Shown here: positions 12,380 through 56,249 of the stretch, piece after piece
Numbering within the stretch: the first letter of the stretch is position 1
Layout: every line of letters begins with the position of its first letter
Source: Mobula hypostoma
Lineage: Eukaryota
NCBI RefSeq assembly: GCF_963921235.1
Contig: NC_086097.1
Span: 135,906,001-135,970,000 of the forward strand
Direction of reading: 5' to 3'
DNA: 64,000 nucleotides
Notes under the pieces: generated by a model
What the model was told of the DNA's origin: nothing
Seen by the model: the letters and a program-made list of their open reading frames with translations, nothing else
Database searches by the model: none
Program-made: the position numbers and the translations under genes

Positions 12380-14700
12380 CAAAGGGAAAGCAGAGTGGCC
12401 TTTGTGGGAGTGGGCCAGGGTTAGAGTGAAAGGCTTTGACTTAACAGGCTTTGGCGAGAACAGGTGGAGGCAAAGAGCACTGACTCATTTGGGATAATTT
12501 ATTTTATTGTAGACCTTAAGCTTGAGAAGTCAGAGCTAAAGGTATAACAAATGTAGAAAAAAATGGTAGTTCAGCCAGTGAAATGCTACTCGTGTAAGAC
12601 GTTGGATTACTAGGGACTTAATGGTCTCCATGATGACTACATCTGCAGGAAGTGCACCCAGCTTCAACTCCTGACTGACAAGGTCAATGAACTGGATGTG
12701 CCCAGGACCATCTATGAAAACCTGGAGATGAAATTTTTACTGAGGTGGTCACACCCAGAGTACATGCTTCAGGGGTGACCATCAGGAGAAGTAAGAGGAG
12801 TGAGCAGTCAGTGAAGGGTTCCCTGTGGCCATTTCTCTCAGCAAGTATACCTCTTTAGATAGTGGTAGGTGGTGTTGACCTATGAGGGCACAGCAGCAGC
12901 AGCCAGGCCAGTGGCACCATAGCCAGCTCTGAGGCTCAGCAGGGAAGGTTAAAGTCCGGCAGAGTGATAATGATACAAGACTCGATAATTAGGGGGACAG
13001 GCTGGAGATTCTGTGAAAGAGTCAGCAGGATGGTGTGTTGCTACCCAGGTGCTAGGGTCCAGGATATCTCAGAGTAGTTGCAGAATATTCTCAAATGGGA
13101 GGGTGAGAAGCCAAATGTCATGCTGCACTTTGGCACCAATTGCATGAGTAGAAAAGGGGAAGAGGTCCTATGCAGTGAGTGGAGGAAGCTGGAAAAAGGC
13201 TGAAGAGCAGGAGCTCCAAGGTGGTAATCTCTGGATTACTCGCAGTGCCATATGCTAGTCGGGGCAGGGAGAGGATGATATTACAGATGAATGAGTGGCT
13301 GAGGAACCAGTGCAGGGGGCAGTGCTTCGGGTTCTTTGATCATTGGAATCTTTTTGGGGGCATAACTGAACTGTTCAAGAGGGACAGTTTGCACCTAAAC
13401 TGGGGGGAAATCAATAACCCCACCAAGATGTTCGCTAGTGCTATTCAGGAGGGTTTAAACTAGTTTGGCAAGGGAATGGGAACCCGAACACCAGGTCATT
13501 AAGTGGAGAGTTGGAGAGGAAGGTAGATGTCAGGGCCAGGAAAAACAAACAGGAGCCAAGTAATAGTTTGAAGTGTGTGCTTTTAATGCAAGATTATTCT
13601 GGGTATAGGTGATGAACGTCGAGCATGGGTCAGTACATGGAACTGTGATTTTGTGGCCATTAGAGAGACGGTTGAGAGAGACACAAATAGGTGCTTAATG
13701 TCCCAGAGCTTTGATGTCTTAGAAAAGACAGAAAGGGAGGTAAAAGAGGTGGGGGAGTCACACTATTAATCAAGGATATGATCAGAGCTGAACTCAGAGG
13801 AGACATAATGGAGAGATTGCTAACTGAGCCTACAGTGCTGTGCAAACGTCTTAGGCACATATATATTGCATGGATGCCTAAGGACTTTTGCACAGTACTG
13901 TAGTAATTATATGTATTGCACCATACTGCTCCTGCAAAAAAAAACAATTTTCATAAAATATGAAATATGTATGTGATGATAAACCTGATTCTGATATAGG
14001 TCCCTATTGTGGATTGAAAGTGGGAAAGTGGCGGAAAGAGGGGAATCATGGTTGGGAAAAGAGGAAGGGAGAAGTGGGGGGGGGGAACAGGAAGCACCAG
14101 AGAAACAGTCTGTAATGATCAATAATCTAATTGTTTGGAAACAAATTACTTTACTTGGTGTTCCAGGGCTGGGTGTGTTTCCATTGGCATTACCCACTGC
14201 CCTGACACTCCTTCTTTACCACCTGTCCCACACCCCTCTCACAGCACGCCACCCTCACCATTCCCAACATCCTTTGCTCCTACCAGATTTACAAACTTTC
14301 TCTCTGCTCCACATTGACAAATGCAGAACTGCACAGAAGCCTTAGGCACCCTAGCTATATAGACTGACTTTTGCACAGTACTGTATATGGGTAGAATTCA
14401 AAAATAGGAAGGATGCAACCAGTCTGGTGGGATTGTTCTACAGACCCACCAATAGCCATCGGGACATTGAGGAACAGATATGCAGGCAGATTTAGGAAAG
14501 GCGTAAAAACATTAGAGTTGTTGTCATGCTCAATTTCCCTAATAAAACTGAGATTTTTTAAATGCAAGAAGCTTCGATAGGGCAGAATTTGTTAGGTGCA
14601 TTCAGGAGGGTTTCTGAAATCTATAAGTCAATAGTCCAACAATAGGAGGGGCTGTACTGGACCTGGTGTTGAGTAATAAGCCTGGCCAGATGACTAAGCT
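12380..14700 (+). mobile_element. Degenerate CR1 LINE 5' half: 5'UTR, ORF1 (Zn-finger plus SGNH esterase) and start of ORF2 APE
   Basis: From about 12564: MVVQPVKCYSCK...DYICRKCTQLQLL; DSIIRG...MVCCYPGARVQD...HFGTN. ORF 13179-13463 (KVVISGLL...DSLHLNW...EGLN*) is followed by APE remnants (IWVEFKNRK, FYRP). Contains stops and frameshifts. Confidence 0.85.
13833..14383. mobile_element. Tc1/mariner-type non-autonomous element (two mini-MITEs flanking cargo)
   Basis: TIR CAGTGCTGTGCAAA / TTTGCACAGTACTG, TA at 13831-13832 and 14384-14385. Removing it restores the host CR1 APE sequence (ACTGAGCCTATATGGGTAGAA). Confidence 0.8.
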
Positions 14701-17765: not shown

Positions 17766-19206
17766 TAGGGCCTATAAAAAGTATCCACACATTTCCCCCC
17801 CACCCCAGAAGCTTTCATGTTTTATTGTTTTTCAACATTGAATTACAGTGGATTTAATTGGCAGCAATTACAGCCTTGAGTCTGTGTGGATAGGTCTCTA
17901 AAAGCTTTGCACATCTGGACACTGCAATTTTGCCCCCTTCTTCTTTACAGAACTGCTTAAACTCTGTTAGATTGCATGGGGATCGTGAGTGAACAACCCT
18001 TTTCAAGACCACCACAAATTCTAAATTGGATTGAGGTCTGAACTCTGACTTGACCACTCCAGGACATTAACTTTATTGTTTTTAAGCCATTCCTTTGTAA
18101 CTTTGACTTTATGCTTGGTGTCATTGTCTTGATGGAAAACAAATGTTCTCCCATGTTTCTTGTAGGCTGCATCAGGTTTTCCTGCAGGATTTCCCTGTAT
18201 TTTGCTGCATTCATTTTACCTTCTACCTTCACAAGCCTTCCAGGGCCTGCTGCAGTGAAGCATCCCCACAGCATGATGCAGCCACCACTATGCTTCATGG
18301 TAGGGATGGTGTAGTTTTGATGATGTGTGATGTTTGGTGTTAGTCTGATGGCCAAAAAACTGAATTTTGGTTTCATTGGATCATAGAACCTTCTTCCAGC
18401 TGACTTCAGAGTCTCCCACATGCCTTCTGGCAAATACTAGCCAAGAATGTTTTTCAACAGTGGCTTTCTCTTTGCTACCCTCCCATAGAGCTGTGACTGG
18501 TGAAGCACCCTGGCAACAGTTGTTGTCTGCACAGTTTCTCCTATCTTAGCCTCTGAAACTTGTAACTCCTTCAGAGTTGTCATAGATCTCTTAGTGGCCT
18601 CCCTCACTAGTCCCCTTCAGTTTTTGAGGACAACCTGCTAGCCGGATTTACAGCTGTGCCATATTCTTCCCATTTCTTGATGATTGATTTAACTGTACTC
18701 CAAGGGATATTCAGTGACTTGGAAATTTTCTTGTATCCATCTCCTGACTTGTGCTTTTCAATAACCTTTTTGTGGAGATGCTTGGAGTGTTCTTTTTTAT
18801 CTTCATGGTGTAGTTTTTACCAGGATACTGACTCATCAGCTGTTGGACCTTCCAGATACAGGTGTACTTCTACTACAATCAATTGAAACACCTTGACTGC
18901 ACACAGGTGATCTCCATTTAACTAACTATGTGGCTTCTAAAGCCAATTGGCTGCACCAGTGATGATTTGGTGTGTCCCATTAAAGGGGGTGAATACTTAG
19001 GCAATCAATTATTTTGTGATTTATATTTGTAATTAATTTAGACCACTTTATAGAGATCTGTCTTTCAAAGATCATTTTGACATGAAAGAGTCCTTTTCTG
19101 TTGATCAGTGTCAAAAAAGCCAGATTAAATCCACTGTGATTCAATGTTGTAAAACAATAAGATATGAAAACTTCCAAGGGGGGGTGAATATGTTTTTTAG
19201 GCACTG
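17766..19206 (-). mobile_element. Tc1-family DNA transposon, decayed and internally deleted, inserted in a CR1 fragment
   Basis: TIRs (C>T)AGGGCCTATAAAAAG...GTGGATTTAAT / ATTAAATCCAC...TAGGCACTG with flanking TA. Transposase remnants PTMKHSGGCIMLWGCF...[11 protein letters not shown] (ORF 17957-18433) and LLETYPHRLKAVIAA. The host CR1 reads TGGTCACC-TA-TCTACAGGAAAGAT across the site. Confidence 0.9.
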
Positions 19207-22585: not shown

Positions 22586-23288
22586 TTAGCTTCCAGTGTC
22601 TGTAAAGGAAAACTTGCCTGGCAAATTTGTTAGAGTTCTTCGAGGAAGTAACAAGTAAGGTGGACAAAGGAGAGGCAGTGGATGTCACTTACTTGGATTT
22701 TCAGAAGACATTTGATAAGGTGCCACACATGAGGCTGTTTAACAAGATAAAATTCAATGGCATTACAGGAAAGATATTGGCATGGGTAGAGGAATGGCTG
22801 ACAGGCAGGAGGCAGAGAGTTGGAATAAAGGGAGTCTTTTCTGGTTGGCTGCCAGGGACTAGTGGTGTTCCTCATGGGTCAGTATTAGGACCGCTACTTT
22901 TCACATTGTTTGTCATTGATTTAGATAATGGAATTCATAGCTTTGTGGCAAAGTTTGCAGATGATAAAAAGATAGGTTGAGGGGTAGGTAGTGCTGAGGA
23001 AGCAATGCAATTGCAGAAGGACTTAGACAAATTGGAATATTGGGCCAAAAAAATGGCAGATGGAATACAATGTTGGGAAATGTATGATAATATATTTTGG
23101 TATAAAGAACAGTAGTGTGGACTATTATCTAAATGGGAAGAAAATTCAAACATCAGAGGTGCAGAGGGACTTCAGAATCCTAATAGAAACATAGAAACAT
23201 AGAAACATAGAAAATAGGTGCAGGAGTAGGCCATTCGGCCCTTCGAGCCTGCACCGCCATTTATTATGATCATGGCTGATCATCCAAC

Positions 23289-26200
23289 TCAGAACCCAGC
23301 CTTCCCTCCATACCCCCTGACCCCTGTAGCCACAAGGGCCATATCTAACTTCCTTTTAAACATAGCTAATGAACTGGCCTCAACAGTTTGCTGTGGCAGA
23401 GAATTCCACAGATTCACCACTCTCTGTGTGAAGAAGTTTTTCCTAACCTCGGTCCTAAAAGGCTTCCCCTCTATCCTCAAACTGTGACCCCTCGTTCTAG
23501 ACCTCCCCAACATCGGGAACAATCTTCCTGCATCTAGCCTGTCCAATCCCTTTAGGATCTTATACGTTTCAATCAGATCCCCCCTCAATCTTCTAAATTC
23601 CAACGAGTACAAGCCCAGTTCATCCAGTCTTTCTTCATATGAAAGACCTGCCATCCCAGGAATCAATCTGGTGAACCTTCTTTGTACTCCCTCTATGGCA
23701 AAGATGTCTTTCCTCAGATTAGGGGACCAAAACTGCACACAATACTCCAGGTGTGGTCTCACCAAGGCCTTGTACAACTGCAGTAGTACCTCCCTGCTCC
23801 TGTACTCGAATCCTCTCGCTATAAATGCCAGCATACCGTTCGCCTTTTTCACCGCCTGCTGTACCTGCATGCCCACTTTCAATGACTGGTGTATAATGAC
23901 ACCCAGGTCTCGTTGCACCTCCCCTTTTCCTAATCGGCCACCATTCAGATAATAATCTGTTTTCCTATTTTTGCCACCAAAGTGGATAACTTCACATTTA
24001 TCCACATTAAATTGCATCTGCCATGAGTTTGCCCACTCACCCAACCTATCCAAGTCACCCTGCATCCTCTTAGCATCCTCCTCACTGCTAACACTGCCAC
24101 CCAGCTTCGTGTCATCCGCAAACTTGGAGATGCTGCATTTAATTCCCTCATCCAAGTCATTAATATATATTGTAAACAACTGGGGTCCCAGCACTGAGCC
24201 TTGCGGTACCCCACTAGTCACCGCCTGCCATTCTGAAAAGGTCCCGTTTATTCCCACTCTTTGCTTCCTGTCTGCTAACCAATTCTCCACCCACACCAAT
24301 ACCTTACCCCCAATACCGTGTGCTTTAAGTTTGCACACTAATCTCCTATGTGGGACCTTGTCAAAAGCCTTTTGAAAATCCAAATATACCACATCCACTG
24401 GTTCTCCCCTATCCACTCTACTAGTTACATCCTCAAAAAATTCTATGAGATTCGTCAGACATGATTTTCCTTTCACAAATCCATGCTGACTTTGTCCGAT
24501 CATTTCACCGCTTTCCAAATGTGCTGTTATCACATCCTTGATAACTGACTCCAGCAGTTTCCCCACCACCGACGTTAGGCTAACCGGCCTATAATTCCCC
24601 GGTTTCTCTCTCCCTCCTTTTTTAAAAAGTGGGGTTACATTAGCCACCCTCCAATCCTCAGGAACTAGTCCAGAATCTAACGAGTTTTGAAAAATTATCA
24701 CTAATGCATCCACTATTTCTTGGGCCACTTCCTTAAGCACTCTGGGATGCAGACCATCTGGCCCTGGGGATTTATCTGCCTTCAATCCCTTCAATTTACC
24801 TAACACCACTTCCCTACTAACATGTATTTCGCTCAGTTCCTCCATCTCACTGGACCCTCTGTCCCTTACTATTTCTGGAAGATTATTTATGTCCTCCTTA
24901 GTGAAGACAGAACCAAAGTAATTATTCAATTGGTCTGCCATGTCCTTGCTCCCCATAATCAATTCACCTGTTTCTGTTTGCAGGGGACCTACATTTGTCT
25001 TTATCAGTCTTTTCCTTTTTACATATCTATAAAAGCTTTTACAGTCCGTTTTTATGTTCTCTGCCAGTTTTCTCTCATAATCTTTTTTCCCCTTCCTAAT
25101 TAAGCCCTTTGTCCTCCTCTGCTGAACTCTGAATTTCTCCCAGTCCTCAGGTGAGCCACTTTCTCTGGCTAATTTGTATGCTACTTCTTTGGAATTGATA
25201 CTATCCCTAATTTCTCTTGTCAGCCACGGGTGCACTACCTTCCTTGATTTATTCTTTTGCCAAACTGGGATGAACAATTGTTGTAGTTCATCCATGCAAC
25301 CTTTAAATGCCTGCCATTGCATATCCACCGTCAATCCTTGAAGTGTCATTTGCCAGTCTATCTTAGCTAATTCATGTCTCATACCTTCAAAGTTACCCCT
25401 CTTTAAGTTCAGAACCTTTGTTTCTGAATTAACTACGTCACTCTCCATGTTAATGAAGAATTCCACCATATTATGGTCACTCTTACCCAAGGGGCCTCTC
25501 ACGACAAGATCGCTAATTAACCCTTCCTCATTGCTCAAAACCCAGTCCAGAATAGCCTGCTCTCTAGTCGGTTCCTCGACATGTTGGTTCAAAAAACCAT
25601 CCCGCATACATTCCAAGAAATCCTCTTCCTCAGCACCTTTACCAATTTGGTTCACCCAGTCTACATGTAGATTGAAGTCACCCATTATAACTGCTGTTCC
25701 TTTATTGCACACATTTCTAATTTCCTGTTTAATACCATCTCCGACCTCACTACTACTGTTAGGTGGCCTGTACACAACTCCCACCAGCGTCTTCTGCCCC
25801 TTAGTGTTACGCAGCTCTACCCATATCGATTCCACATCTTCCCGGCTTATGTCCTTCCTTTCTATTGCGTTAATCTCTTTTTTAACCAGCAACACCACCC
25901 CACCTCCCCTTCCTTCGTGTCTATCCCTCCTGAATATTGAATATCCCTGAACGTTGAGCTCCCATCCCTGGTCACCCTGGAGCCATGTCTCTGTGATCCC
26001 AACTATATCATAATCATTAATAACAATCTGCACTTTCAATTCATCCACCTTATTACGAATGCTCCTTGCATTGACACATAAAGCCTTCAGGCACTCTTTT
26101 ACAACTCTCTTAGCCCTTTTTAATGCTTGCCCTGGATTTGTCGGCCTGCCACTTTTACTTTTCCCCTTTGTACTTTTTGCTTCTACGCTCACTTTACACC

Positions 26201-26309
26201 CCTCTGTCTCTCTGCACTGGTTCCCATCCCTCTGTTGTGAACTAACCTCCTCACACCTAGCCGCTTTAATTTGATTCCCACCCCCCAACCATTCTAGTTT
26301 AAAGTCACC
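23289..26309 (-). CDS. CR1 ORF2: apurinic-like endonuclease plus reverse transcriptase (no AUG start; the frame opens at 26309)
   Basis: APE motifs NARS, ITETW, VYRPP, GDFN and SDH; RT motifs YLDFQKAFDKV, GVPQGSVLGP and FADD; CR1 C-terminus TRGH...FFTQRVVNLWNSLP. About 1000 codons without a stop. Confidence 0.95.
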   Translation of the reverse strand, partial: GDFKLEWLGGGNQIKAARCEEVSSQQRDGNQCRETEGCKVSVEAKSTKGKSKSGRPTNPGQALKRAKRVVKECLKALCVNARSIRNKVDELKVQIVINDYDIVGITETWLQGDQGWELNVQGYSIFRRDRHEGRGGGVVLLVKKEINAIERKDISREDVESIWVELRNTKGQKTLVGVVYRPPNSSSEVGDGIKQEIRNVCNKGTAVIMGDFNLHVDWVNQIGKGAEEEDFLECMRDGFLNQHVEEPTREQAILDWVLSNEEGLISDLVVRGPLGKSDHNMVEFFINMESDVVNSETKVLNLKRGNFEGMRHELAKIDWQMTLQGLTVDMQWQAFKGCMDELQQLFIPVWQKNKSRKVVHPWLTREIRDSINSKEVAYKLARESGSPEDWEKFRVQQRRTKGLIRKGKKDYERKLAENIKTDCKSFYRYVKRKRLIKTNVGPLQTETGELIMGSKDMADQLNNYFGSVFTKEDINNLPEIVRDRGSSEMEELSEIHVSREVVLGKLKGLKADKSPGPDGLHPRVLKEVAQEIVDALVIIFQNSLDSGLVPEDWRVANVTPLFKKGGREKPGNYRPVSLTSVVGKLLESVIKDVITAHLESGEMIGQSQHGFVKGKSCLTNLIEFFEDVTSRVDRGEPVDVVYLDFQKAFDKVPHRRLVCKLKAHGIGGKVLVWVENWLADRKQRVGINGTFSEWQAVTSGVPQGSVLGPQLFTIYINDLDEGIKCSISKFADDTKLGGSVSSEEDAKRMQGDLDRLGEWANSWQMQFNVDKCEVIHFGGKNRKTDYYLNGGRLGKGEVQRDLGVIIHQSLKVGMQVQQAVKKANGMLAFIARGFEYRSREVLLQLYKALVRPHLEYCVQFWSPNLRKDIFAIEGVQRRFTRLIPGMAGLSYEERLDELGLYSLEFRRLRGDLIETYKILKGLDRLDAGRLFPMLGRSRTRGHSLRIEGKPFRTEVRKNFFTQRVVNLWNSLPQQTVEASSLAMFKRKLDMALVATGVRGYGGKAGF
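26294..26303 (-). promoter_or_regulatory. Candidate -1 ribosomal frameshift site U_UUA_AAC followed by the ORF1 stop UAG
   Basis: The minus strand reads ACT TTA AAC TAG in the ORF1 frame. The -1 frame TTT AAA CTA GAA TGG TTG is ORF2. The same motif occurs at 13454-13463 (+). Confidence 0.6.
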
Positions 26310-27674
26310 TCAGTAGCCCCCGCTAATCTCCCTGCCAGGATATTGGTCCCCCGAGGATTTAATGCAAGACTCCCAGAAGGTTAATTTACAGGTTGAGTCT
26401 GTGGTAAAGAAGGCAAATGCAATGTTGGCATTTATTTCAAGGGGAATAGAATATAAAAGCAATGAGATAATGCTGCGGCTTTCTATGACACTAGTCAGGC
26501 CACACTTGGAGTATTGCCAACAGTTTTGGGTCCCATATCTCAGAAAGTATGTGCTGTCATTGAAGAGAGTCCAGAGGAGGTTCACGAAAATGATCCAGGA
26601 ATGAAGGGGTTGACATATGATGAGCATTTGGCAGCTTTGGGTCTGTATTCACTAGAATTTACAAAAATTTGGGAGTTCTCCTTAAAAGCTATCGAATGTT
26701 GAAAGGACTAGATGAGGTGGATGTGGAGAGGTTTTCTCCTACAGTGGGTATTCAGAATTAAAGGGCACAGCCTCAAAATTGAGGGGAGGCCCTTTAGACA
26801 GATGTAAGGAGGAATTTTTTTAGCCAGAGAGTAGTTGATCTGTGGGATGCTCTGCCACAGGCAGCAGTGGAGGCCAAGACCGTGGGTATATTTGAAGTGC
26901 AAACTGACAGTTTCCTAATTGCTCAGGGCATCAAAGGATATGGCGAGAAGGCAGGTGTATGGTTGACTGGAATCTGGGATCCGCCATGATTGGATGGTGG
27001 AGCATGCTGAATGGCCTAAATCTGCTCCTATGTCTTATGATCTTAAAGGAAAATTAGCAAACAATAAATTCAAAACAGAATATGATTCATCTCTTGGCTT
27101 CAGAGTTCCTGTGGGATCCCGATCAACTGCAGAAACAACTACTGTTTGAAAGCCTTTGCATTCCTAATGATCATCACAATCTAAAAGAGAAGCTCTTCGC
27201 ACTGAGGCAGCATGGATCCTTTGTTCTCTGGCCTTGAACTTTGTACTTTAGAACTTCACCCTCGCATCCCCTTGCCATAACTGTGACTTTCTGAATTGTA
27301 GCCATGGATGTTAGAACATATGACAAGACAAGGTGCCAAAGGCAGATAATGACCAAATGATGAAAATTTTATGGCAGCCATAGAGGATTAGTAATTGGTT
27401 GTGATGGAGTGCACCATCAACCATTTTGTTTGTCGGATTTCCACCTAAAATCTAGGTAGCACCTGAGACTTGAGGTCTAAGATCTGAAACCTGAGGTCCA
27501 ATCCATGGGTCCAAAGTCTAACTTTGAGGTCTAAGGTCCAAGTCCAAGGTCAAAGGTCTGAAGCCTGCATAAAGAGCTCTGAGGCTCGAGGTACTAAGCC
27601 CTGAGGACACTTTCTTTCATGTACTGCATCATTCTATGAAAGGGATAACATGCCAGCCTGGGTATTCTTTGAAC

Positions 27675-28350: not shown

Positions 28351-28911
28351 AACTGAAGGAAGAGCTGGTAAGAGATTTGAAAGTGAGAGGGGGAGGGGGA
28401 GATCCAAAATGATAGGAGAAGACAGGAGGGGGAGGGATGGAGCCAAGAGCTGGACAGGTGATTGGCAAAGGGAATACGAGAGGATCATGGGACAGGAGGT
28501 CCGGGGAGAAAGACAAGGTGGGGGGGGACCCAGAGGATGGGCAAGGGGTATAGTCAGAGGGACAGAGGGAGAAAAAGGAGAGTGAGAGAAAGAATGTGTG
28601 TATAAAAATAAATAACAGATGGGCTACGAGGGGGAGGTGGGGCATTAGCGGAAGTTAGAGAAGTCGATGTTCATGCCATCAAGTTGGAGGCTACCCAGAC
28701 GGAATATAAGGTGTTGTTCCTCCAACCTGAGTGTGGCTTCATCTTTGCAGTAGAAGAGGCCATGGATAGACATGTCAGAATGGGAATGGGATGTGGAATT
28801 AAAATGTGTGGCCACTGGGAGATCCTGCTTTCTCTGGCGGACAGAGCGTAGGTGTTCAGCAAAGTGGTCTCCCAGTCTGCGTCGGGTCTCGCCAATATAT
28901 AGAACAACATT

Positions 28912-30189
28912 TTGGATTCTAGACCTAATCAGTTCCCCTCTCCCACCACTCTGCTCCGTCTAACGGAATTAGTCCTTACTCTTAATAATTTCTCCTTTCG
29001 CTCCTCCTACTTCCTCCAAACTAAAGGTGTAGCTATGGGCACCCGTATGGGTCCTAGCTATGCCTACCTTTTTGTTGGCTTTGTGGAACAATCTATGTTC
29101 CATGCCTATTCTGGTATCTGTCCCCCACTTTTCCTCAGCATTGGTGCTGCTTCCTGCACGCATGCTGAGCTCGTTGACTTTATTAAATTTGCCTCCAACT
29201 TTCATCCTGTCCTCAAGTTTACCTGGTCCATTTCTGACACCTCCCTCCCCTTTCTAGATCTTTCTGTCTCTGTCTCTGGAGACAGCTTATCCACTGATGT
29301 CTACTATAAGCCTACTGACTCTCACAGCTGTCTGGACTATTCCTCTTCTCACTCTGTCTCTTGCAAAAATGCCATCCCCTTCTCGCAATTCCTCTGTCTC
29401 CGCCGCATCTGCTCTCAGGATGAGGCTTTTCATTCTAGGACGAGGGAGGTGTCCTCCTTTTTTAAAGGAAGGGGCTTCCCTTCCTCCACTATCAACTCTG
29501 CTCTCAAACGCATCTCCCCCATTTTACGTACATCTGCTCTCACTCCATCCTCCCGCCACCCCACTAGGAATAGGGTTCCCCTGGTCCTCACCTACCACCC
29601 CACCAGCCTCCGGGTCCAACATATTATTCTCCGTAACTTCTGCCACCTCCAACGGGATTCCACCACTAAGCACATCTTTCCCTCCCCCCACCCCGCTTTC
29701 TGCAGGGATTGCTCCCTACGCGACTCCCTTGTCCATTCGTCCGCCCGATCCCTCCCCACTGATCTCCCTCCTGGCACTTATCCTTGTAAGCAGAACAAGT
29801 GCTACACATGCCCTTACACTTCCTCCCTTACCACCATTCAGGGACCCAGACAGTCCTTCCAGGTGAGGCGACACTTCACCTGTGAGTCGGCTGGGGTGAT
29901 ATACTGCGTCTGGTGCTCCCGATGTGGCCTTCTATATATTGGCAAGACCCGACGCAGACTGGGAGACCGTTTTGCTGAACACCTACGCTCTGTCCGCCAG
30001 AGAAAGCAGAATCTCCCAGTGGCCACACATTTTAATTCCACATCCCATTCCCATTCTGACATGTCTATCCACGGCCTCCTCTACTGTAAAGATGAAGCCA
30101 CACTCAGGTTGGAGGAACAACACCTTATATTCCGTCTGGGTAGCCTCCAACCTGATGGCATGAACATCGACTTCTCTAACTTTTGCTAA
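28912..30189 (+). pseudogene. Penelope RT C-terminal half plus GIY-YIG endonuclease (5'-truncated, catalytic YIDD missing)
   Basis: QTKGVAMGTRMGPSYA, LPFLDL, YYKPTD; Cys linker CKQNKCYTC; VIYCVWCSRCGLLYIGKTRRRLGDRFAEH; C-terminal PDGMN. Confidence 0.9.
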
Positions 30190-35118: not shown

Positions 35119-36490
35119 GCAACACACAGCAAAGTTGCTGGTGAACGCAGCAGGCCAGGCAGCATCTCTAGGAAGAGGTACAGTCGACGTTTCAGGCCGA
35201 GACCCTTTGTCAGGACTAACTGAAGGAAGAGTTAGTAAGAGATTTGAAAGTTGGAGGGGGACGGGGAGATCCAAAATGTTAGGAGAAGACAGGAGGGGGA
35301 GGGATGGAGCCAAGAGCTGGACAGGTGATTGGCAAAAGGGATACGAGAGGATCATGGGACAGGAGGTCCAGGAAGAAAGACAAGGGGGGGGGAACCCAGA
35401 GGATGGGCAAGGGGTATATTCAGAGGGACAGAGGGAGAAAAAGGAGAGTGAGAGAAAGAATGTGTGTATAAAAATAAATAACGGATGGGGTACGAGGGGG
35501 AGGTGGGGCATTAGCAGAAGTTAGAGAAGTCGATGTTCATGCCATCAGGTTGGAGGCTACCCAGACGGAATATAAGGTGTTGTTCCTCCAACCTGAGTGT
35601 GGCTTCATCTTTACAGTAGAGGAGGCCGTGGATAGACATGTCAGAATGGGAATGGGATATGGAATTAAAATGTGTGGCCACTGGGAGATCCTGCTTTCTC
35701 TGGTGGACAGAGCGTAGGTGTTCAGCAAAGCGGTCTCCCAGTCTGCGTCGGGTCTCACCAATATATAAAAGGCCACATCGGGAGCACCGGACGCAGTATA
35801 TCACCCCAGCCGACTCACAGGTGAAGTGTCGCCTCACCTGGAAGGACTGTTTGGGGCCCTGAATGGTGGTAAGGGAGGAAGTGTAAGGGCATGTGTAGCA
35901 CTTGTTCCGCTTACATGGATAAGTGCCAGGAGGGAGATCAGTGGGGAGGGATGGGGGGGGGGACGAATGGACAAGGGAGTCGCGTAGGGAGCGATCCCTG
36001 CGGAAAGCAGTGGGGGGGAGGGAAAGATGTGCTTAGTGGTGGGATCCCGTTGGAGGTGGCGGAAGTTACGGAGAATAATATGTTGGACCCGGAGGCTGGT
36101 GGGGTGGTAGGTGAGGACCAGGGGAACCCTATTCCTAGTGGGGTGGCGGAAGGATGGAGTGAGAGCAGATGTACGTGAAATGGGGGAGATGCGTTTAAGA
36201 GCAGAGTTGATAGTGGAGGAAGGGAAGCCTCTTTCTTTAAAAAAGGAGGACATCTCCCTCGTCCTAGAATGAAAAGCCTCATCCTGAGAGCAGATGCGGC
36301 GGAGACGGAGGAATTGCGAGAAGGGGATGGCGTTTTTGCAAGAGACAGGGTGAGAAGAGGAATAGTCCAGACAGCTGTGAGAGTCAGTAGGCTTATAGTA
36401 GACATCAGTGGATAAGCTGTCTCCAGAGACAGAGACAGAAAGATCTAGAAAGGGGAGGGAGGTGTCGGAAATGGAGCAGGTAAACTTGAG
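35119..36490 (-). mobile_element. Penelope-like element 3' portion (same family as 28220-30526)
   Basis: ORF 35511-35837 encodes the GIY-YIG domain VIYCVRCSRCGLLYIGETRRRLGDRFAEH. The tail hammerhead at 35181-35217 carries a CUGACAA core change. Confidence 0.9.
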
Positions 36491-37814
36491 TTTAGTGTTG
36501 AGGTGAGTGCAGGTATCCTTACTGGTTCAGGGGCCTAATGGTTGAGGGGTAATAACTGCTTCAGCACCTGGCGCTGTGGGATTAAAGCACCTGTATCTCC
36601 TTCCTAATGGCAGCAGTGAGAAGACGGATGGCCTGGATGGGTCCTTGATAATTGGGTTCTCTTATCCTTGTGTGCACAAATCCAAGGTCACTCCATGTCT
36701 GCCTTGCTCCTGTCAGTAGTAATGTGCAGGAGCCCAACCAAAGCGCTTGCTCTCTCATAGTACACTACTTCTGCAGGGATTGCCCAGTGCACTCTCTGCA
36801 CCTACTAAGGCCATCACTGACTTGAGGTTAGCTTTCGCTATGCTCGGCAACGTTGTCTGACTTTCACTCTGTTGTCTTTCCATAAACTTTGTATTTCAAT
36901 CTTACATAACAGGAGGGCATTTGGCCCATCTTAACCATCTCATCTTAGTCACAGACCAATCCATTCCCCAATCATTTTTCAGGTATCATTTCCTTCCTCT
37001 CAGATTCCACCCCTCAGCTATACGCCAGGAGAAATCTACCCACCAATCCGCACGTCTTTGGCATGTGGGTGAAAAGGTGACCTCCACGTGGACAGCAGCA
37101 GAGGTCAGGATTGAACCTAAGTTGCAGGGGCTCTGGCAGATGTGCCACTATACTGCCCTGTCATTAGGGTCTCCAGTTTGTCTGAAAATCCTTAGAATAA
37201 CTGTCCGTTCAAAGCCCATCCTTCATGTACTTAGCATCGATTTCTGTCATGTGCACATGTTCAATCCTACCTGATATTAAGATAATAATTCACAAGACAG
37301 ACAGAGTGCTAAAACCTTGTTCATTTCTTTCTCTGTCATGTAAATACACAGACATGACATACAGTACATTGTCATTTAATATTGGGCGGATGGCCTTGGA
37401 GAGACATGAGAGAGTTAACAGCAACACAGAATGGATTGGTTGAATAGCCTGCCTCTTCACTGTCGTCCCAGCGTAATTGGAAGGGACGGTGTATGGGAAA
37501 ATGTAGGAGTTTGTTTCAAATTAAAGTCAGTCCAGTCTGTGTGTACAACGGGAGGCTGGCTCAGTATCACTTGTCCCTGCTCCACCACCAAAGAGCTGTT
37601 TCACCTCAACTCACATCTGCTTTTGATCTGCTTCCTGGAGAACCCGGAAGACTAAGATGAGTTATAAAAGCCTTTCAGTCCTTGTTAGGTGCAGATCAAA
37701 AGCAGGATCAGGGATATGGGGGTCACTGAACAGGAAAAAATATTAAAACCTGCAGATGAAAAGGAAACGTGCAACTCATAGAAATCCAAATGAAACAGTC
37801 AGCAGAGTACGTGC

Positions 37815-39904: not shown

Positions 39905-41635
39905 GTCCGTCGTCTTGCCTTGCCTTGCGTCCTTAACTCCTGGTGGAGTCATCAGGGTGCCGTCATGTCAAGCTTTGCACCAGTCTGCTTCATCTGTCGC
40001 GGTTGTGTGCCAGAGATTGGGTCATTGCAAATGTTTTCCCTGTCCATCCTTTAATGTTGTCCATCCATCTTTTCCTCTGTCTACCTCTCCTTCTTTCCCC
40101 CTCCACAGTTCCTTGTAGAATGGTCTTTGCAAGGCCACTGGATCTTGTTACGTGGCCGTACCATCTCAGCTTTCTTTTCTTCACCGTTGTGAGAAGGTCT
40201 TCATGGGGGCCAACGTGGTGCTGGATGGTCTTGCGGATCTGCTCGTTTGTGATGTGGTCCAAGTAGGAGATGCCCAAAATGTTGTGACAGCATCTCATTT
40301 CCAATGCCTGTATCTTCCTCTGTGGCTCTGCTGTGAGGGTCCATGTCTCACATGTGTACAGGAAGATGGAGAATACTAATGCACGCAAGAGTCTGATCTT
40401 GTACTTCATGGTGATGTTGCTGTCCCTCCATATTGTCTTGAGTTTGGATAGTGCAGTCATTATATGTGCGGTTCTTGCCAGGACCTATGGTCTTGATCCT
40501 TCATCACTGATGATTGCCCCCATGTATTTGAACTGCTGCACTGTCTCAAGTTTCTGACCATAGACTGAGATGTCTGTTGTGATGTCACAGTTGGCATTTG
40601 CCATGAGTTTGGTTTTCTCGGCACTTATTTCCATTCCAAACGTTGTGGAGGCTCTGTTAAGATGGCTGACCAGGTTGGCCAGTTCGTCCTCTTGTCCTGC
40701 AAGTCCATCAATGTCGTCAGCAAATCTTAGGTTTGTGATGTTCCTCCCTCCGATGCTGACTGTGCCCACATGATCTTCAAGTAAACACTCATGATTTGTT
40801 CCAGGAAGACATTGAAGAGAGTCAGGGAGAGGAGGCAGCCCTGACGGACTCCTACAGAGACATGGAACCACTGGTGCCCTGAGCGAGCACTGCACTGGTT
40901 GCCTTGGCGTAAAGCTGGTGGATTGTATGAATCAGCTTATGCCCCATGTTGAATTTCTTCATGGTGGCCAAAAGGCATCATGCCAAACTCTGTCAAATGC
41001 CTTCTTGAAGTCTATGAAGACATGGTAGAACTCTCTCTGGTGCTGGAGGTGTTTCTCACAGAGGGGGTGGAGGTTAGAAATCTGCTCAGTGGTGCTTTTG
41101 CCCTTATGGCAGCCTGCTTGTTCCTCGACAATGATGTCTTCTGCCTGAGGTCTCAGTCTGTTCAAGATGATTCTGAGCATTACCTTGCTTACATGGCTGA
41201 TCAAACTGATGGCACGGTAATTCTGGCAAAGTTGGAGATTGCCTTTCTTGGGAAACGACTGAGTCCAAGGTGTCAGTCATTCACCTGTTTGCCAGACCTT
41301 ATTGTAGATGGTGGTAAGCGTGTCTATCGTGGCTTCTCCTCCATGCTTCAGCAGTTCAGCAGGGATGTTGTCAACTCCTGCTGACTTCCTGCACTTCAGT
41401 GATCATATTGCGGCTTCAACATCGTCAGGCGTGATTGGATAGTCATCCTCATTGGAAGATTCCTGTACATTCAGCATGCTTGGATTCCCTTTGCTCTGGT
41501 AGTTGTACAGTTCTGAACAGTACTCTGTCCACCTTTCCATTATTTCCTTTTCTTCTGTGAAACTTTTGACATTTTTGTCTTGGATGGTGTTCACTTTGGC
41601 TTGTTTTTCTTTGGTAAGATCTTTCACCAGTCCAT
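39905..41635 (-). mobile_element. RTE-clade (BovB-like) LINE, 5'-truncated and degenerate
   Basis: ORF pieces RWTEYCSELY, LISHVSKVMLRII...FIDFKKAFDRVWH, NLRFADDIDGLAG and CETWTL...RKLRWYGHVTR...GRQRKRWMDNIK. (GCAAG)n-like tail. Confidence 0.9.
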
Positions 41636-54727: not shown

Positions 54728-56249
54728 TTAGCAAAAAGAACTTAGCTGAAGCCTACCTACAGATGGAGATGGAAAAAGTATCCAAAGTATTTCTCACCAT
54801 AACTCCCGCAAAGGGCTTTCTTGCTATGGTAGGCTTATTTTGTCTCAAAGAAGATGGCACCAACAAACAACGCAACCAAAGGTGATGTCCTTCAGACAAT
54901 TCACAAAACTACTTTTTTTACTTCTTCTTTCAAATATGATACTGGCACTATTGGAACCTGTGATTTACAGTTTGATGGTGTGCTTTCAGGCTGATTGAGC
55001 CATCTGGTGCTTTTCTGTCTCTGAGGAAGTTCGGTGAGGTTTCAAGCGGAGTGGGTGGACAGGAGACGGGGAGTGAGCCCATGATCGACTCCATTTCTCG
55101 CCAATCCAGCCAATAATAAAGTGGAGCAAGATTGAAATCAACAATGATGAGAGTGACAGATGAGCATGTGTTCAGTGCTGTCTGCCTGTGTTTGACCAGT
55201 CCCTCACTCTCTTGCTCTCTCTGCTGCTGAAGGAAGACGGCTGCATTTGACTGGTCTCTCTCTTCCTCTCGTTTGATGGTGGAGGATGGCGTCAGAGTCT
55301 TGGGTCTTGGGCAAGGTTTAATCAACATAGTTTGTTGAGTGGACACTACAGTTCATGTTATTTGTGTTTCTGGTCTCTGGTTACTCTTTTTTTTATTGCT
55401 ATTTTGTGCGATTTTGATTGGGGCAGACTGGCTCTACAGCCTGCAGTCAATGAACAACACAACACTGAACTGAACTAAACGGAACATTCCTAGACTGTTT
55501 CAATGACTTTGTGGTTTGATGTTTTATATTCTGTGTTTTTCACTATTTTTTTTTTGTTGTTTGCATGATTTGTTGTTTTTTATGCACATTGATGTTTTCT
55601 TTGCACGGGCTCCATGGTGTTTTTTTGTTTCAAGGCTGTCCGTGCAAAGCCAAATCTCAGGGTTGTATATCACATAAATACTATGGTAATAAACCTACAT
55701 TGAATCTTTGTATCTTTTTGGAGGATCATCTGCACTTGCACTCTGGCAGAAAGCTATGGACCAGGTTCTGCAAGGCTGCCTTGGGCACTCAGTGTTACCT
55801 GGATGACATCATTGTTACCAGTGACAATGACAAAGAACATCTCCAAAATCTCAGTACAATGTTAAAAAGATTAGAAGGTTACGGGCTCAGAGCACAAGCA
55901 ACAAGTGTGAATTCTTTAAACCAAGCATCACTTACTGTGGTCACTCCAGTGACGCACAAAGATTACACAAGTGTGCTGAAAAAATTCAAACAGTAGATGC
56001 CCCAAGACCAAAGGATGTGTCACAGTTGTGGTCCTTTTTAGGATTTGTAAATGACTATAACAGATTCTTGCCAAACCTGGTAACTGAGCTCCACTATTGA
56101 GCTCATTACTATAGATTGGGAAGAAATGGCAACGTATAAAACAGTGTGACTTTCCAAAAGACAAATAAACTGGTGATGTCAGACTTTGTACTCACACATT
56201 ATGATCCACATTGTCCAGTGAAGCTTAACTGTGACACCTCACCTTATGG

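Follow-up and report, generated by a model that had tools for sequence, protein, structure and literature searches.

The window analysed here is the whole 64,000-nucleotide stretch of the Mobula hypostoma genome, and it contains on its minus strand a young CR1 LINE, whose features are collected in Table 1. The host of this insertion is an older CR1 on the opposite strand, a LINE nested in a LINE; the ORF2 remnant of the older element lies on the plus strand at 22609-23185 and 26360-26956, and its reading resumes across the 4-nt duplication. Because the young copy is truncated at 26359, only 21 ORF1 codons remain, and all of them (21/21) are identical to the end of the 311-aa full-length ORF1 annotated in Mobula hypostoma (P0201). 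An abundant CR1 family, whose other copies run on into the esterase past 26359, is seen in the contigs of four coded runs. The original prediction had taken ORF1 to be an esterase, and the match of the tail to P0201 bears this out, as does the best match of the family profile and model, which is to the solved zebrafish ZfL2-1 esterase (4C1B, an L2 homologue). A Pfam search of ORF2 placed both APE (Exo_endo_phos) and RT (RVT_1) above the cut-off, so both marks of the esterase-type CR1s, APE and RT in ORF2 and an SGNH esterase in ORF1, are present. Judged by its domain content, its 3' repeats and the homologues of its ORF1 in birds, turtles and sharks, the element is a CR1 LINE. A second CR1 (~12560-14700, plus strand) has a whole ORF1 (~12560-13463) with a zinc finger and an esterase, and its -1 frame runs on toward APE remnants. 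Elsewhere in the window, a Penelope-like element is present in two copies, at 28903-30189 (+) and 35511-36526 (-), with a GIY-YIG domain (Pfam match at the cut-off) and, in the first copy, a 428-codon open stretch. Three further segments, at 17957-18436 (-), 39990-40484 (-) and 55520-55996 (+), are by eye what we take to be remnants resembling Tc1/mariner transposase, an RTE-type LINE and Gypsy-type RT, respectively.

Table 1 Features of the two CR1 junctions in the window
Feature	Position	Strand	Remark
Second CR1 junction, identical heptamer + TAG	13454..13463	+	diverged, decayed CR1
Young 5'-truncated CR1 LINE	23185..26359	-	3' end of (TTTCTATG)n-type repeats
Target duplication flanking the young CR1	23181-23184 + 26360-26363		4 nt
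ORF1 tail, final 21 codons + TAG	26294..26359	-	C-terminal helix of SGNH esterase
Slippery heptamer U_UUA_AAC	26297..26303	-	X_XXY_YYZ phase with ORF1
ORF1 stop UAG	26294..26296	-	immediately 3' of heptamer
ORF2, APE + RT	23289..26309	-	1006 codons, stop to stop; first ATG within APE domain
AUG-free linker, slip site to Asn of APE motif NARS	26073..26303	-	77 codons, -1 frame
G-rich tract	26277..26290	-	starts 6 nt after heptamer

On the minus strand, ORF1 of the window copy ends ACT (26305-26303) TTA AAC TAG, and, as at -1 frameshift sites, the heptamer is in phase with the upstream ORF. The -1 frame is bounded upstream by TGA 26312-26310, a codon that varies among copies of the window CR1 family in the run contigs. 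On recheck, the positions originally given for the ORF1 end, the heptamer and the TGA were all correct, and the intact ORF2 of about 1000 codons that had been placed in the -1 frame was recovered at the length given in Table 1. Its first Met is residue 209 (202 when counted from TTG 26288), past NARS (80), ITETW (105) and VYRPP (179), which agrees with the earlier claim that the first in-frame AUG lies inside the APE domain and after the NARS and ITETW motifs. In the 128 kb of both strands, TTTAAAC runs directly into a stop at two sites, each of them the end of a CR1 ORF1, and X_XXY_YYZ with any stop behind it is found at 22.

At the protein level, the decayed ORF1 tail used as a query gave 84 matches, and a profile built from 24 of these, picked for their L-N ending, gave 787 matches, 120 of them listed. 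All proteins were anchored on the H-L motif by a profile cut before the tail. Among the matches listed, 107 proteins were new; 103 of these reached the motif and 91 ended L-N 17-25 residues on, the other 12 comprising one protein that ends I-N and eleven whose records are truncated, fused or shifted. Stopping exactly 21 residues past the H-L motif is common to 117 of the anchored proteins, and 116 of them end L-N and one I-N. L-N is retained in 93/94 when the 23 alignment-seed sequences are set aside, and in 49/49 after dereplication, at a median esterase identity of 41% (42 proteins long enough to compare). Of 114 ORF1 proteins extending as far as the H-L motif, 99 have the stop at the same position, and positions -3 to -8 show an entropy of 1.8-2.9 bits or have at least two common residues. 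Outside the profile listing, 72 mostly weaker proteins were available, of which 59 reach the H-L motif, 31 stop nearby and 20 end L-N, the rest including tails unlike CR1. The named sources of the L-N ORF1s are chimaera, sharks, rays, skates, sturgeon, eel, Xenopus, poison frog, turtles, lizards and birds; a word-index search with an 85-aa ORF1 piece as query gave no match among 33 candidates. Two SGNH hydrolases recorded from bacteria, P0199 (Pseudomonas aeruginosa) and P0232 (Klebsiella pneumoniae), both on contigs of 3-4 kb, are vertebrate CR1 ORF1s with the L-N end and are likely host contamination in bacterial assemblies.

The same region can also be followed in the -1 frame. F-K-L stands at the expected place in 4/25 run-on proteins and in P0003 (the five being P0003, P0098, P0109, P0160 and P0217), and three further run-on proteins read L-N-Q or L-N-E, a single base change away from stopping at TAG or TAA. 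In some ray-type families (P0195, P0212, P0112, P0003 and P0217), the G-run before the heptamer varies in length, and the gene models accordingly have extra Gly residues or in-frame esterase-APE fusions. The in-frame esterase-APE gene models P0003 and P0217 were rejected as evidence of translation, since the length of this G-run varies between copies.

For comparison at the DNA level, a junction-blind pattern, ending 21 codons before the junction, retrieved five metagenome loci and one genome locus (L006). L003 and L005 were chance matches of this pattern and L006 was without CR1 similarity, and all three were dropped before junctions were counted. Five DNA junctions were compared, namely the window copy, the copy at 13454, and L001, L002 and L004 from the junction-blind pattern. 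The heptamer is intact in four of the five, and TAG is present in four of the five; the decayed L002 keeps the heptamer and has lost the intact stop, and the decayed L004 carries one C within the heptamer. All ten bases are present in L001, whose ORF1 is 96% identical to a sturgeon protein and whose linker is 35 codons long, so that window copy and L001 agree at 10/10 positions over heptamer and stop. In the alignment of their linkers and APE domains, these two use the same codon at 12/42 identical residues and agree at 3/12 fourfold sites. As synonymous sites between them are saturated, ten identical bases need RNA-level selection or dual coding; with L-N-stop already granted and with the codon usage of the window, this codon set would be expected by chance at ~0.005 per lineage. 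Among the five DNA junctions, then, the heptamer is conserved beyond protein constraint. Within the window family, no substitution falls at 26268-26306 among the variants listed (40 of 50 rows, four runs), which is weak evidence, as gaps of equal length are found at 25969-26012 and 26094-26159. Neither an APE query nor the DNA pattern found CR1 in viral contigs, and no CR1 was found in plasmids. Conservation of the heptamer's phase across CR1s, proposed as a check of the original prediction, holds at the protein level in jawed vertebrates and at the DNA level in the junctions available. On the sequences compared, vertebrate esterase-type CR1s close ORF1 with U_UUA_AAC_UAG and have ORF2 in the -1 frame; this junction is real, ancient, strongly conserved and recoding-like.

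Canonical -1 signals are bipartite and include a stimulator, as set out in the available text of PMC7618472 and PMC3835772. No stable fold was found in the 90 nt downstream of any of the five junctions (z -1.1 to +0.7 against shuffles), and an Rfam search gave no real match, a NEAT1 match of 14.7 bits against a cut-off of 60 being dismissed as chance. No stem-loop or pseudoknot was found 5-9 nt downstream, which leaves room for long-range or protein-dependent stimulators. In a crude pseudoknot scan, only the decayed L002 scored above all 40 shuffles. Its pseudoknot-like pairing (L002:1340-1436, minus strand) starts 5 nt past the heptamer, and simple folding of this segment is not unusual; sauropsid-type families may carry structure absent from ray and sturgeon-like families. 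Once L002 is offset by one base to allow for the T it lacks, all five junctions have in common within the G-rich tract only a G at 8 nt and a GGG at 12-14 nt past the heptamer (GGG at 26285-26283 in the window copy), and this shared GGG could be an RNA signal or a Gly constraint. G4Hunter gives 1.48 for the window copy versus 0.88-1.36 in the other four junctions, so that by score a quadruplex is possible in the window copy only, perhaps also in L002. A conserved G-quadruplex was rejected because the four-run G tract is not conserved and only the single GGG is common to the junctions. The G-rich tract had been proposed as the stimulator of the shift; its spacing from the heptamer stands, but the absence of a fold at 5/5 junctions and of a conserved quadruplex tells against a canonical role. 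In sequence, the CR1 junction thus resembles a -1 frameshift site but falls short of the canonical form in its stimulator.

How ORF2 would otherwise begin depends on the stretch between the heptamer and the endonuclease. Going upstream from the heptamer, the -1 frame meets a stop after 2-17 codons, none of them ATG, and in neither the window copy nor L001 does an ATG appear from the last stop in this frame as far as NARS. In these two the downstream ORF is open from the heptamer and is without a start of its own, and some subfamilies have a linker AUG. By rough shares of contig depth, an ATG in the ORF2 frame arises through a variant at 26192 in ~17% of X2, 95% of X6, 8% of X5 and 0% of X13, and through one at 26167 in ~9% of X6; several ORF2 homologues likewise have a Met within the linker. 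The earlier description of ORF2 as AUG-less is therefore right for the window copy and L001 and too general for the family as a whole. Such linker AUGs are optional, as expected of a variable coding linker, yet they permit reinitiation in some lineages. At ~26112 the window linker is 27 nt shorter, in frame, than that of related copies (an insertion in X13; loose ends in X2, X5 and X6), and this length variant fits a coding linker that tolerates changes in length. The near-cognate codons that stand in frame between heptamer and NARS are TTG, ATT, GTG and CTG in the window copy versus two ATT in L001, and none stands at a matching place in both. UUG 26288, which had been offered as an alternative start of ORF2, was rejected on this ground as not conserved.

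The main rival to frameshifting, which we regard as unlikely, is that L1-like termination-reinitiation yields ORF2 as a protein of its own, with a restart at a nearby AUG or non-AUG codon and with the ten bases serving as the termination/reinitiation context. It has precedents among LINEs, since initiation of L1 ORF2 is of unknown mode and independent of its AUG according to the available text of PMC5009743, and silkworm SART1 uses an overlapping stop-start (PMC3894237, in the portion available). Folding of the junctions predicts no frameshift stimulator, which also speaks for it, and suitable start codons do occur, in the linker of some ray subfamilies and in L004, where an ATG lies two bases past the ORF1 stop. 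An in-frame AUG that overlaps or adjoins the stop, as SART1-type coupling requires, is found in L004 alone among the five junctions; the window copy has an AUG beside its ORF1 stop, but out of frame. Against reinitiation, the linker ATGs are polymorphic and missing from the intact window copy and L001, near-cognate codons are not shared, and reinitiation leaves unexplained both the perfect in-phase X_XXY_YYZ heptamer and the conservation of F-K-L in the -1 frame up to and across the stop.

It is also conceivable, but in our view very improbable, that L-N-stop is kept for the ORF1 protein itself, as a helix cap, for membrane or partner binding, or as a degron, and that its slippery look is a by-product. 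The terminal helix does form part of the SGNH fold, and it would be plausible for a hydrophobic residue to lie close to its end. However, I, L, V, F and M are tolerated at other buried positions of the helix, whereas L and N are nearly invariant. Moreover, the solved homologue 4C1B stops two residues short of L-N, and the final helix of an AlphaFold model ends before the last two residues, so the fold has no obvious need of L-N. No nearby position is more variable than the one before Leu, yet a residue whose codon is unable to end in U stands there in only 2/49 proteins, compared with 18 and 19 for the two positions ahead of it; this codon-ending test at -3 gives p=0.005 overall and p=0.33 for polar residues alone, and it is confounded by helix packing. 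Selection on the protein would also be unable to fix the synonymous choices seen in the DNA, and the start of ORF2 would still be missing. Least probable of all is a separate ORF2 mRNA, with CTAG as a 3' splice acceptor or TTTAAA as an internal promoter element, for although the stop ends in YAG and esterase and APE are bridged close by in a turtle gene model (P0214), there is no polypyrimidine tract upstream, the contigs of four runs, which drop rare forms and in one case may come from RNA, have no joint ending at 26293, and a start codon would still be needed.

We consider it likely that ORF2 of vertebrate esterase-type CR1s is made as an ORF1p-ORF2p fusion by programmed -1 frameshifting. 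Most ribosomes would terminate at UAG and release ORF1p of ~311 aa, and in a minority tRNA-Leu and tRNA-Asn would re-pair one base back on U_UUA_AAC. The slipped ribosomes would then cross a linker of 35-77 codons into APE and RT, giving a fusion of ~1,310 aa whose transframe junction would read T-L-N-L-E-W, or L-K-L where the slip precedes Asn decoding. Since there is no conserved 3' stem-loop or pseudoknot, the pause would likely come from slow termination at the adjacent UAG, perhaps assisted by the conserved GGG 12-14 nt downstream. Efficiency of the slip would probably be low, giving a high ratio of ORF1p to ORF2p. In published work, a nearby stop matters for the -1 shift of pea enation mosaic virus, and cardioviruses use protein-stimulated shifts with longer spacers; by analogy, such precedents may extend to CR1. 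Of the original proposal of a CR1 fusion by frameshifting, the phase-conserved slippery site that joins the two ORFs is retained, the G-tract lacks support as a canonical stimulator, and the lack of an AUG is not universal. A wider reading, which we put forward tentatively and would stop short of calling probable, is that a gag-pol-like fusion of esterase, endonuclease and RT has been made by the dominant LINE of sharks, reptiles and birds ever since jawed vertebrates arose, through a structure-free -1 shift driven by slow termination at the adjacent UAG and by the GGG 12-14 nt downstream, which a protein may read.

How LINEs translate ORF2 is described as an open question in the part of a review available to us (PMC3894237). 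If the frameshift model is true, the CR1 replicase would be a protein of ~1,310 aa with a membrane-binding esterase, unlike the free ORF2p of L1. The annotation of CR1 ORF2 would change, as first-ATG calls cut into the endonuclease, and so would the construction of active CR1s for retrotransposition assays. The model would also bear on whether host factors that act against frameshifting could restrict a LINE, and the junction would represent an old cellular -1 signal working without obvious RNA structure. In the accessible portion of PMC2734521, chicken CR1 ORF2 is given as ~95 kDa, which is short for APE and RT and would fit a first-ATG call inside the endonuclease.

No report of CR1 frameshifting was found in the literature covered, and the CR1 descriptions of 1997-2003, which lie outside that coverage, may hold an earlier suggestion. 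The available portions of the CR1 literature, including PMC4120745, PMC3905857, PMC13708176 and PMC2734521, gave no account of how ORF2 is translated; the word 'frameshift' is absent from the main text of a 2026 chordate CR1 survey (bioRxiv 10.64898/2026.01.13.699120), and CR1 is not mentioned in the accessible text of PMC5009743. The junction sequence was not found in the supplementary material available for PMC4316615, PMC2734521, PMC4120745 and PMC4255032, the F-K-L matches in that of PMC4316615 being unrelated, in frame and near the 3' end of ORF2.

Among known systems, the element belongs to the same class as the vertebrate CR1s with an esterase ORF1 (subgroup 7, ORF1 type IVB) described in the available text of PMC4120745, with which it shares a zinc finger and SGNH esterase in ORF1, APE and RT in ORF2, a tandem-repeat 3' end and 5' truncation. 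U_UUA_AAC is listed among the shiftiest heptamers on mammalian ribosomes in the accessible part of PMC5009743. The coronavirus and arterivirus 1a/1b sites, of the retroviral gag-pol type, have the identical heptamer in the right phase and the polymerase ORF in the -1 frame (PMC3835772, Table 1, as available). Unlike these viral sites, the CR1 junction has no pseudoknot or stem-loop 5-9 nt downstream, its zero-frame stop adjoins the heptamer, and its host is a LINE. An adjacent stop is present at some retroviral frameshift sites too. Among APE-type non-LTR elements, ORF2 of Dictyostelium TRE5-A and TRE3-A is stated to need a -1 frameshift in the accessible part of PMC5911963, so that among LINEs in general the idea has a precedent. 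These elements differ from CR1 in clade, host and ORF1, and are likened to it here by their stated need for a -1 shift. Mammalian L1 and SART1 resemble CR1 in having a bicistronic RNA from which ORF2 is translated after ORF1 (PMC5009743, PMC3894237, in the portions available); they use reinitiation or an overlapping stop-start to make a separate ORF2p, whereas in CR1 the frames overlap on a slippery heptamer. What would be new is thus a known -1 mechanism, in a variant form, in a known element.
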